From Candidatus Nanohaloarchaea archaeon (GTDB taxonomy: Archaea; Nanohalarchaeota; Nanosalinia; Nanosalinales; Nanosalinaceae): DNA of 64,000 nucleotides. Positions 1-3,000 of this stretch are shown piece by piece; position 1 is the stretch's first letter; each line of letters begins with the position of its first letter. A program made the position numbers. The DNA is taken from NCBI GenBank assembly GCA_047617745.1, contig JBLGBN010000001.1, positions 1 to 64,000 of the forward strand. Direction: 5' to 3'.

Positions 1-3000
1 AGTCACCCGAGTCAGGTTCAGACGAGCTCCTGGTTTTCCAGGGTCAAGTCTGAGCTTGGCAAGGGGGGCTAAGTCATAACAAGGTAGCCGTTGGGGAACC
101 ATCGGCTGGATCACCTCCAGAAAACTTTAGCTTCACCGGAAAATTGAAACCCCGGAGAAGCAAACTTTTCAAACCCTTTTCACAGGGTTTGAGCTCATCC
201 GTCTCTCCTACCTTACACTTACTTTTCACATAACCATTCTCCAGAAAATAGGAAACTAATTTCAATACCATCTCTAAACGTTGTAACATGGAAATGTCGA
301 AAAGAAAGATTGCATCCGTTTTCATGCTGCTGATGATCCCTGGTTACATTCTAGCGGTTTTCTCACTGCCTGCAAACATATCGACCCAGTGCGAACCCAA
401 TGTAGATCCTGAAACCGGGGTAACTGATCAGGTCGGAGTTTGCACCGAGGTAAGCGCAACCATAATGAGGGAGTATTACTTCGGCACTCTGAGACTGCCG
501 GTACAGACATTAAGCCTGAACTTCGATCTGCTTAACAAGTCGTTTATACCAGTTTTACTGGTTTCCTCCGCTGTTCTCTGGCGTGAATATATTTAAACCG
601 GCAATAGTATTGTTTACTTATATGGAAAACCCTATCGAATTTCTACAGAAAAGCGCACAAGGACAGCTTGTGGCTTTACTATCACTAGGACTTGTAGTCT
701 CATTCGGCGCAGGAGTAGCCCTTGACGACGGAGTAACACAGGACGAGACAGCCGCTCAGGACTCCAGCCAGTGGGAAGGAGTATACACTGTTGAAGTTGA
801 AAGAGACGGAGAAGTAGTTTACAGGGAAAAAGAACATAACGTACTGACCAACCAGGGACAGAACTGGATCCGGAGCCAGATTTCGGCCAACAACGGAATG
901 GGTAATGACGGCAACGAAGCACAGTACATTTCAGTTGGAAACACGTCAGCCCCTACAGCTACCGACACCGTTTTACCCGGAGAAATCCAAGACTTCAGCC
1001 TCTCACGAACCCAGGGCTCCACAACAGTCTTTGGCGACGGAGAGTTCCAGGTACAGAACACCTTCCAGGCAAGTCTGGGAGAGGACCAGCAGCTGATAGT
1101 CAACACAACAGGACTTAACTACGACAACACGGCAGGAGCAGACACACTGGTTTCAGGAGGAGAATTCCCTGACGCCAACCTGCTTGACGGAGACCAGCTG
1201 ACAGTTACCCACAACGTCACAATCAACGACGGCGGCAACTAAAAGCTGAAGTCCTAAAAACCTCTTTTTTTCCTTCTATTATTCGTATCTATATCTTAGC
1301 TAGCCTGTTTCGACCTCAGTAGTTTCTACACCCTTTTTTAGCAGGCGCGAGAAGTTTATCTAATGGAGAGGTAGATAACTATCTACTATGTAGATAGTTA
1401 TCTATTTTCAGCACCGGTGAAAACAGAAGGTGCATAGAAAAACACACATACTCAAGGTAGTGCTAGCAGTTTCTTTAGCTCTAGCTATACCTTCTAACGC
1501 CTCCGCTGCCACAGAGACTATCACTGCCTGTGGATCCTCGGCCAACCAGCTTACAATACCCGCCGCTCAGACCATAAACATAACTATAGAAGGAGCAGGA
1601 GGAGCAGGAGGTGATTCAGCATCAGGGGGAGGAGGGGGATTAATCGAACTTGAATATCAGGCCTCAGATGATGAAATCTTAGAGCTGTATGCAGGATGCG
1701 GAGGAGTGAACAGCAACGGGGCAGGAGGAGCAGGATATGTAGCCGGTTCTCCTGGAGAAAATACAGATGGCACAACAGGAGGGGGAGGAGGTTCATCCGC
1801 AGTGCTTGGAGGAAACAACAATAAAATCGCTTCAGCAGGGGGTGGAGGAGGAGCAGGATATGGAGGAGGATTTCTAGGAATTGGTGCCGGAGCAGGAGGA
1901 GCAGGAGGAGGCGAAGGAAATACAGGAGGAGCAGGAGGAACAACCGATACCCCAGCAGGAGGTGACGGTTCTCCCATAATAAACCAGGGAACAGCAGTAA
2001 ATCAGCAAACAGGGGGAGGAGGGGGAGGAGGCGCATCAGGATCCGATGGATCTGACGGCCAGGTCGTAGTTGAATACAATATTCCGCCTACAGTGCGCTC
2101 CAACAAAACCTTCAACGGCACAGATCAGAACAATCTAGTGGAAAAAGAACAGTACGTCAGCTCCGACACGTTAACAGTCAGGAGCAATGTAACAGACCCT
2201 GACAGCGAGCTCGGAGAAATACTTCTTTCCATTAGAGATCCTACAGGAGATCTAACTCTAGACAACGCCTCCATGAGTCAGATAGACACGGTAAATATAG
2301 ACGGAGATTCAGGCGCAACGTTTGAAAGAGATTTCAACTTCCCTTACATCTTTCTGGGAGACTGGAGCTACACTATCTGGGCAAGCGATCAGCCAGGACT
2401 GCTGAACGATAGCCAGGGAAGCTTCGAGATGATAGATCTTACACCTCCAGAAACCAGGAATACTTTCCAGAACAGAACACTGATGACTATCCACAACACA
2501 GTTCTTCTTCAGGCAGAGGGATACGACAACTGGAATCTTTCACATGCTGTACTGGCAACCAACGAAACCGGTGAATGGGAGAACAAAACAGACAGTTACG
2601 GTTCTCCAAAGACGCCTTATACCTTCCAGACCTGGACAACCACAGGTTTCGCCTGGAAAAACAACAGCATGACCGGAAATAAATCTGTTCACTGGCGCGT
2701 CTGGTACAACGACATATCGGGCCAGCACTCTGTAACGGAGACAAACTCTTTCCGGGTCCGTGAGAACTTCAACTGGAAAGGAGTTGAATCTGAGGAAGTA
2801 GGATTCACACGTGAAAGCCCGAGAAGAGCAGCAAATGGAAGAACAATCAAGCAAGCGGTAGATGTCCAGAACATTCACACCAGATTAGTTGACTTGGGGA
2901 GAGTTAAGAACTCGATAATAGATATCAGGCAGGAGGCGGTCCGAAGCCAGGTAATCAAACCTGCGGTAGCGGAATCGATGAGCACAGCTCTAAGAAATGA

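Follow-up and report, generated by a model that had tools for sequence, protein, structure and literature searches.

At the start of this contig, the small-subunit rRNA departs from the standard ribosome at a base pair that, according to passages of PMC3900107, is universally conserved as C1404-G1497 (E. coli numbering), contacts the mRNA through the phosphate that joins G1497 to U1498, and impairs tRNA binding when disrupted. An earlier note on this DNA had read A at 1497, had proposed that a weaker U-A pair stands here throughout the Nanohaloarchaea, and had suggested relaxed start selection and easy +1 slippage as possible consequences. The question raised by the locus is thus whether the swap is real, whether it is peculiar to this phylum, and whether it has any part in the choice of start codons. 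Taken by itself the U-A swap is of modest weight, and the interest of the locus comes mainly from a second substitution, A1338, and from the unusual AUU, AUC and AUA starts (hereafter AUH starts) of one nanohaloarchaeal family.

The 16S rRNA 3' end and its 1404-1497 pair

The window, i.e. the whole stretch of 64,000 nucleotides analyzed here, opens with the 3' end of a 16S rRNA gene at 1..119 on the plus strand, which begins at E. coli position 1409, ends with the anti-Shine-Dalgarno (anti-SD) tail and was delimited with Rfam RF01959 and by alignment with genome G003 and E. coli rrsA. The archaeal small-subunit model RF01959 matched window 1-119 with 94 bits against a gathering threshold of 50, with its 5' side cut off, and helix 44, helix 45 and the anti-SD tail, as expected of an archaeal 16S 3' minor domain, were all recovered. 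With K-12 rrsA as the numbering ruler, window base 1 corresponds to 1409, base 71 to A1492 and base 76 to 1497, and base 76 is an A where E. coli has a G, so that the A1497 reported for window 71-89 (AAGTCATAACAAGGTAGCC) proved to be real. In the alignment to rrsA the decoding-region strand of helix 44, A1492-U1506, occupies 71..85 on the plus strand, with A1497 at 76..76. Helix 45 (86..108, plus strand; RF01959 and rrsA alignment) is unaltered, with A1518/A1519 at 97-98, and the anti-SD tail read from the window sequence (109..119, plus strand) has an intact CCUCC core at 114-118 and pairs with the GGUGA or AGGUG motifs that precede AUH starts. The SSU/1498 group I intron insertion site, described in a passage of PMC6125680, lies at 77..78 on the plus strand and is vacant in the window, while it is filled in genomes G002 and G015.

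The partner base 1404 lies five bases upstream of the contig start. As the earlier note had stated, the source assembly holds only the 1497 half; the remaining 16S, including 1404, is absent from it, and a search of the whole assembly found no second 16S piece. The partner could be read on a 278-base contig from run X10, which was placed on the 16S of G003, a genome of the same genus, and which carries both letters that separate the window from G003; since the match consists of these two diagnostic letters, the contig may also stem from a close strain. It reads A1338, C1400 and U1404, so that the window's own 16S most likely combines A1338 and C1400 with a U1404-A1497 pair. Helix 44 of the window is also near-identical to the nanohaloarchaeal records L050, L069 and L070.

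A survey of 70 nanohaloarchaeal genomes, conducted with patterns in which the tested base was left free, returned A1497 in 28 of 28 matches from 27 genomes (a second match in genome G047 was not confirmed as rRNA) and U1404 in all 27 matches from 26 genomes, and the 23 loci covering both halves all carry U-A. The compensating U1404 claimed for the relatives is thus present in every match, and the pair appears fixed as far as the 16S matches reach, i.e. in families f1, f3 and f5; the wording "throughout the phylum" goes further than this, because family f2 gave no 16S match and family f4 only one match at 1497 and none at 1404. A further variant that had been reported as U1399 was off by one on the rrsA numbering. 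The variable site is 1400, which stacks on the wobble pair according to part of PMC7005279 and is U in 13 of 27 nanohaloarchaeal matches, while C1399 and its partner G1504 are unaltered. Likewise unchanged near the swap are G1405-C1496, G1401-C1501, A1492/A1493 and G926.

The surroundings of the gene deserve a brief mention. The 16S (window 1-119) and 23S (10681-13626) genes are unlinked, with about 10.5 kb between them that holds a 2,690-codon open frame at 1421-9490 and an intron-bearing tRNA-Ala on the minus strand at 10072-10204. In G015, two 16S 3' ends lie 2.5 kb apart (C3:581094-585087), only one of them with the 1498 intron, which may represent a duplication or an assembly artefact.

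Recurrence and compensation of the swap

GTDB species genomes were scanned for bases other than G at 1497, with 1404 left free, and the scan returned at least 117 U-A rows and at least one C-A row, and no U or C at 1497 among the matches listed. Nanohaloarchaea accounted for five of the 118 matches listed, and 113 of the 118 fell outside the phylum (one row, L099, is not rRNA), as had been anticipated in the remark that A1497 is scattered through other lineages. The labels of 80 of these matches include Thermoplasmata, Micrarchaeota, Aenigmatarchaeota, Saccharibacteria, Dojkabacteria, Omnitrophota, Enterousia, Clostridia, WOR-3, Anaerolineae, Bdellovibrionota, Opitutales and Entomospira. Mislabelling is probable for some bins in the scan, and caution is needed with the labels of G296, G320, G337, L071 and L065, whose bins hold a 16S apparently foreign to the label or two different 16S types. 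Scaled roughly from the five of about 23 known carriers that the scan caught, the pair would be present in a few hundred species, or about 1% of those in which the region is assembled.

Within single lineages the pair is far from exceptional. U1404 was found in 30 of the 96 Thermoplasmatales genomes (the order of I-plasma) that gave an rRNA match (169 searched, five non-rRNA rows dropped) and in 17 of 66 Aenigmarchaeota genomes from a sample of 251, and these counts, together with the 113 of 118 listed rows, show that U-A is not a signature of the Nanohaloarchaea. The partner base matched in every one of the 14 Thermoplasmatales and Aenigmarchaeota genomes in which the 16S was read, and in G320. 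Moreover, three U-A Thermoplasmatales stand on separate branches amid C-G ones in a 16S tree of 23 sequences (support 62 to 100; G282 is misaligned in it by inserts). Several C-G Aenigmarchaeota (L252, L256, L260 and L264) also carry 16S inserts between 1338 and 1391, which in L252 and L264 are some 180 bases long. As a background, G1338, C1400 and C1404 were present together in 45 of 45 unselected Bacillota genomes among the matches listed (121 genomes matched; the seed and one non-rRNA row dropped), which suggests that selection against the swap is normal and that the swap is not strictly neutral.

Covariation at 1404-1497 was the original evidence for this pair. In helix 44, 209 distinct sequences comprised 134 with U-A, 74 with C-G, one with C-A and none with U-G, the set being enriched in variants by design. 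Substitutions affect both partners and combinations that do not pair hardly occur, as expected of compensatory change, and only transition pairs were seen. The swap is rare, recurrent and strictly compensated. The single uncompensated case, L057, combines C1404, A1497 and U1400 in a Clostridia bin with U-A relatives and is possibly an assembly chimera or an intermediate.

Start codons, frame keeping and the P site

AUH starts were sought by an SD scan, in which codons 3-9 bases past GGUGA or AGGUG were collected at the heads of open frames. In 1812 nanohaloarchaeal frames the scan found 160 canonical, 22 AUH and 50 other codons, and the control inside genes gave 201 AUH versus 1664 other (Fisher p 7e-6, a value that is overstated because kin are not independent). 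The excess of about 16 AUH codons over about six expected corresponds to about a tenth of the SD-led starts in Nanohaloarchaea. Orthologs were compared between G000 and 838 kb of G005, which led to canonical starts in 277 of 390 pairs, 258 of them AUG in G000, and brought to light SD-led genes in which the conserved N-terminus opens with AUU, AUC or AUA. Start calls based on BLAST were noisy, running into non-coding DNA and antisense frames, and served as candidates only; the results given here come from the SD scan and from the start columns of single genes.

Two genes illustrate the phenomenon. The start column of E2, read in 20 of 57 matching genomes, contains AUG, GUG, UUG, AUU or AUC; it is AUH in five of 14 f1 genomes and in none of six f3 and f4 genomes, and an upstream in-frame stop with no canonical codon in between was found in four of the five AUH genomes and in G005, although G061 and G000 have an in-frame GUG inside the SD motif that offers an alternative start. 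In atpI the start is AUH in six of nine f1 genomic windows and in none of five f3 and f4 windows, with GUG in three and an AUG five codons on as alternatives. Considering atpI or E2, all 11 f3 and f4 windows are canonical. The family models for AtpI and RpoB' begin at AUH columns. Based on these sequence comparisons, the AUH starts of f1 look real and SD-dependent. If so, gene callers restricted to AUG, GUG and UUG truncate such genes, among them E2 and RpoB', for which the next canonical codons in G005 lie 71 and 59 codons downstream, respectively.

Ordinary starts prevail elsewhere. Ribosomal protein genes are canonical wherever the start is visible, in U-A and C-G Thermoplasmatales as well as in Nanohaloarchaea. 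In the window, an AUG coincides with the model start or closely precedes it in 13 of 15 family-anchored genes, agmatinase and FlaI being not anchorable, and the open frame of initiation factor aIF1A (40637..41026 from stop to stop, minus strand; NCBIfam) has an ordinary AUG; an AUH flag on dhys in the window was a false positive. SD-led AUU, AUC, AUA or CUG starts were also seen in G000 (C8, C12, C13 and C20) and at L224:13055, L215:14759 and L213:15254, and the genes with such starts comprise E2, E3, AtpI, RpoB', a prephenate-dehydratase-like and a kinase-like gene, the last three labels having been assigned by sequence reading.

The earlier note was thus right about relaxed starts as a phenotype, but the evidence speaks against U-A as their cause. 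The same SD scan gave 60 canonical, three AUH and 17 other codons in U-A Thermoplasmatales versus 77, four and 24 in C-G Thermoplasmatales, and 29, one and eight in U-A Aenigmarchaeota versus 26, two and five in C-G Aenigmarchaeota, with no excess in any of the four groups. At the nanohaloarchaeal rate an excess of about six AUH starts would be expected in the U-A Thermoplasmatales and of about three in the U-A Aenigmarchaeota, while -0.9 and -0.6 were observed; with 60 and 29 canonical SD-led starts these samples are small and compatible with a weak effect. Conversely, the transaldolase of the C-G genome G414 starts at AUU. These results suggest, with modest power, that U-A is neither sufficient nor necessary for AUH starts. 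One apparent AUC start, of an epimerase, was noted in the U-A genome G372, which has G1338. Regarding easy +1 slippage, no conserved gene split between frames was found: among 458 outgroup proteins matching G000 there was no true +1 split, and a split-gene screen of G000-G005 returned only antisense, rRNA or upstream non-coding matches. The sole hit of the outgroup screen was a fused outgroup polymerase lying over two ordinary adjacent genes.

Compared with the canonical pair of E. coli, as described in passages of PMC3900107, the nanohaloarchaeal pair occupies the same positions between unchanged neighbors and is still a Watson-Crick pyrimidine-purine pair, with U-A in place of C-G, and it presumably keeps both the pairing and the mRNA phosphate contact. 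Those passages do support the pair and its contact with the mRNA, as the earlier note had cited them, but the damage they report results from breaking the pair and not from a Watson-Crick swap. By nearest-neighbor terms, the stack weakens from -2.4 to -2.1 kcal/mol, and a terminal A-U adds a cost of up to 0.5.

A1338 is the better suspect for the AUH starts. In Nanohaloarchaea this base was found in 24 of 24 matches from 23 genomes and in all 13 full genes aligned to E. coli (L001-L013). In E. coli, G1338A gives a stronger initiator tRNA contact and more non-canonical initiation (PMC11497404 and PMC3950347, in passages citing Qin 2007) and retains 82% activity with near-normal growth, compared with 53% for C1400U and 10% for m2G966C (part of PMC2709574). 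Position 966 is C in 11 of the 13 nanohaloarchaeal genes and 967 is A in six of 13, and archaea are described in part of PMC7005279 as having systematically a modified U at 966. The initiator tRNA of G000 is canonical and keeps its three G-C pairs, which rules out an altered initiator tRNA as the cause of AUH starts. A sister clade of 16 genomes filed under Aenigmarchaeota carries A1338 and U1400 but C1404, and its member G314 adjoins the Nanohaloarchaea in the 23-sequence 16S tree (support 82), from which A1338 appears older than U-A. However, atpI starts with AUG in five of five sister-clade genomes, and f3 has A1338 and U-A yet shows AUH in none of seven windows, so that A1338 alone is apparently not sufficient; no AUH excess was seen in 80 kb of G314, which also has A1338. 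With the query used, atpI was not found in five of five U-A and four of five C-G Aenigmarchaeota.

A1338 likewise recurs elsewhere, in 20 of 66 Aenigmarchaeota genomes, in six Clostridia loci and in at least 97 metagenome rows, 89 of them distinct, whose sequences mostly read as CPR- or DPANN-like, 14 with U1404 and 25 with U1400. A candidate contributor of a different kind is initiation factor aIF1, whose N-terminal cysteine motif is present in G002 (L183) and missing in G005 and G021 (L185, L187) as well as in the Thermoplasmatales copies read.

Explanations for the swap and known systems

Probably, U-A is an isosteric swap that is tolerated, was fixed under weak selection and does not by itself affect initiation, and the AUH starts arise from SD anchoring, A1338 and further changes in f1. 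According to this explanation, the compensated Watson-Crick transition, located in the two-pair core of upper helix 44, would preserve the shape of the helix and the backbone by which the P-site codon is positioned, at a stability cost of about 0.3 to 0.8 kcal/mol, would have become fixed many times, for the most part in lineages with small genomes, as well as on the nanohaloarchaeal stem, and would remove a cytidine that other organisms modify, while by itself leaving start selection and frame keeping unrelaxed. A1338 would be the likeliest permissive cause, through a tighter grip on the initiator tRNA's intact G-C pairs and in concert with the further f1 changes. More tentatively, the P site may have been re-tuned as a whole, A1338 having come first and its tighter tRNA grip having buffered later weakening by U1404-A1497, C966, U1400 and A967, with the SD-dependent AUU, AUC and AUA starts on about a tenth of the SD-led genes of f1 acting as a dial on the output of operon subunits such as AtpI, E2 and RpoB'. 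If this were true, a whole lineage would be living with a laboratory initiation-infidelity mutation.

An unlikely alternative is epistasis, in which U1404-A1497 would make the P site looser on its codon side and allow AUH starts only in combination with A1338 (and U1400, C966 and A967), so that the earlier idea of U-A as a cause would be partly right. The AUH excess is indeed seen only where A1338 and U-A co-occur, the sister clade with A1338 but C1404 has the AUG start of atpI in all five genomes, and each change is found with the other more often than in the Bacillota background, A1338 accompanying eight of the 112 U-A loci outside the Nanohaloarchaea and U1404 being present, among the matches listed, at 14 of the 89 distinct A1338 loci from metagenomes. 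However, this co-occurrence is confounded, as both changes gather in fast-evolving small genomes, and the AUH-free f3 windows come from genomes with both changes. Drift after the loss of a putative C1404 modifier (for m5C or a related mark) or of the eL41 contact, which we regard as quite improbable, would instead explain the swap itself. In Thermus C1404 bears m5C, and in Pyrococcus, where it contacts eL41, the mark is tentatively hm5C (part of PMC7005279). Strong RsmB/NSUN matches in Thermoplasmatales occur only in G091-G113 and G139, and every rRNA match in these genomes has C1404. Yet many C-G Thermoplasmatales also lack a strong RsmB/NSUN match, which reduces this pattern to one clade contrast, G000 retains an RsmB/NSUN gene, and E. 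coli keeps C1404 although it is unmodified there (a table in PMC7005279). An RsmE family search returned no match in five archaeal genomes, the model being silent in archaeal controls too.

Very improbable, finally, is selection of the swap as an escape from homing endonucleases of rRNA introns at 1400 and 1498, whose targets would span 1404 and 1497. Group I introns do follow directly after U1498 in G002 and G015, SSU/1498 introns are known in Nanohaloarchaeota and Micrarchaeota (passages of PMC6125680), and LAGLIDADG-bearing inserts occur at 1400 and 1498 in CPR bacteria (part of PMC11270868). The introns found here, however, are inserted in A1497 alleles and have a guide that pairs with A1497, so the allele is invaded, and U-A is found in Enterousia, Clostridia and Entomospira loci with uninterrupted 1498 sites (which the search pattern demanded). 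Modifier loss and endonuclease escape do not exclude epistasis. The introns measure 275 bases in G002 (L013:2931-3205) and 293 bases in G015 (L012), and their guide GUGAC pairs with exon GUCAU, a U being opposite A1497. They share the site and the phylum with the archaeal SSU/1498 group I introns of subgroup IB4 in PMC6125680; the guide pairing with the A1497 allele noted here is, as far as we know, not part of the description in the passages of that paper.

The 1404-1497 pair and its role are already known, as is the phenotype of G1338A. In the Nanohaloarchaea two P-site features called universal (C1404-G1497, passages of PMC3900107) or invariant (G1338, part of PMC9014874) are replaced phylum-wide and recur in small-genome lineages. 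The nanohaloarchaeal A1338 is the identical base change to E. coli G1338A, at the same type II A-minor contact to the initiator tRNA, and would act, judging from the passages on that mutant, in the same direction, toward non-canonical starts. It differs in being natural and fixed, in a ribosome that works with aIF1, aIF1A and aIF2, in standing alongside U-A, U1400 and C966, and in recurring in Aenigmarchaeota, some Clostridia and CPR/DPANN-like contigs. A looser parallel is provided by the E. coli rsmH and rsmI deletions, small changes adjacent to the P site with modest shifts in non-AUG initiation and frameshifting (part of PMC2831307), although those lose the m4Cm1402 modification whereas here a pair is swapped at 1404-1497. 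In the open literature, to which our search was confined, we found no report of a natural U1404-A1497 pair, of archaeal A1338 or of nanohaloarchaeal AUH starts, and no data on a U1404-A1497 mutant; the text of the CPR ribosome paper PMC9297842 does not mention 1338, 1404 or 1497. Natural sister-pair comparisons, e.g. of U-A and C-G Thermoplasmatales, could indicate how much of P-site conservation concerns start fidelity.

The earlier note had also supposed that primer mismatches at this site may have been noticed before. Poor primer coverage of the phylum has indeed been published, though it is not tied to base 1497 in the passages of PMC11409422; the 1492R primer as printed there mismatches A1497, six bases from the primer 3' end.
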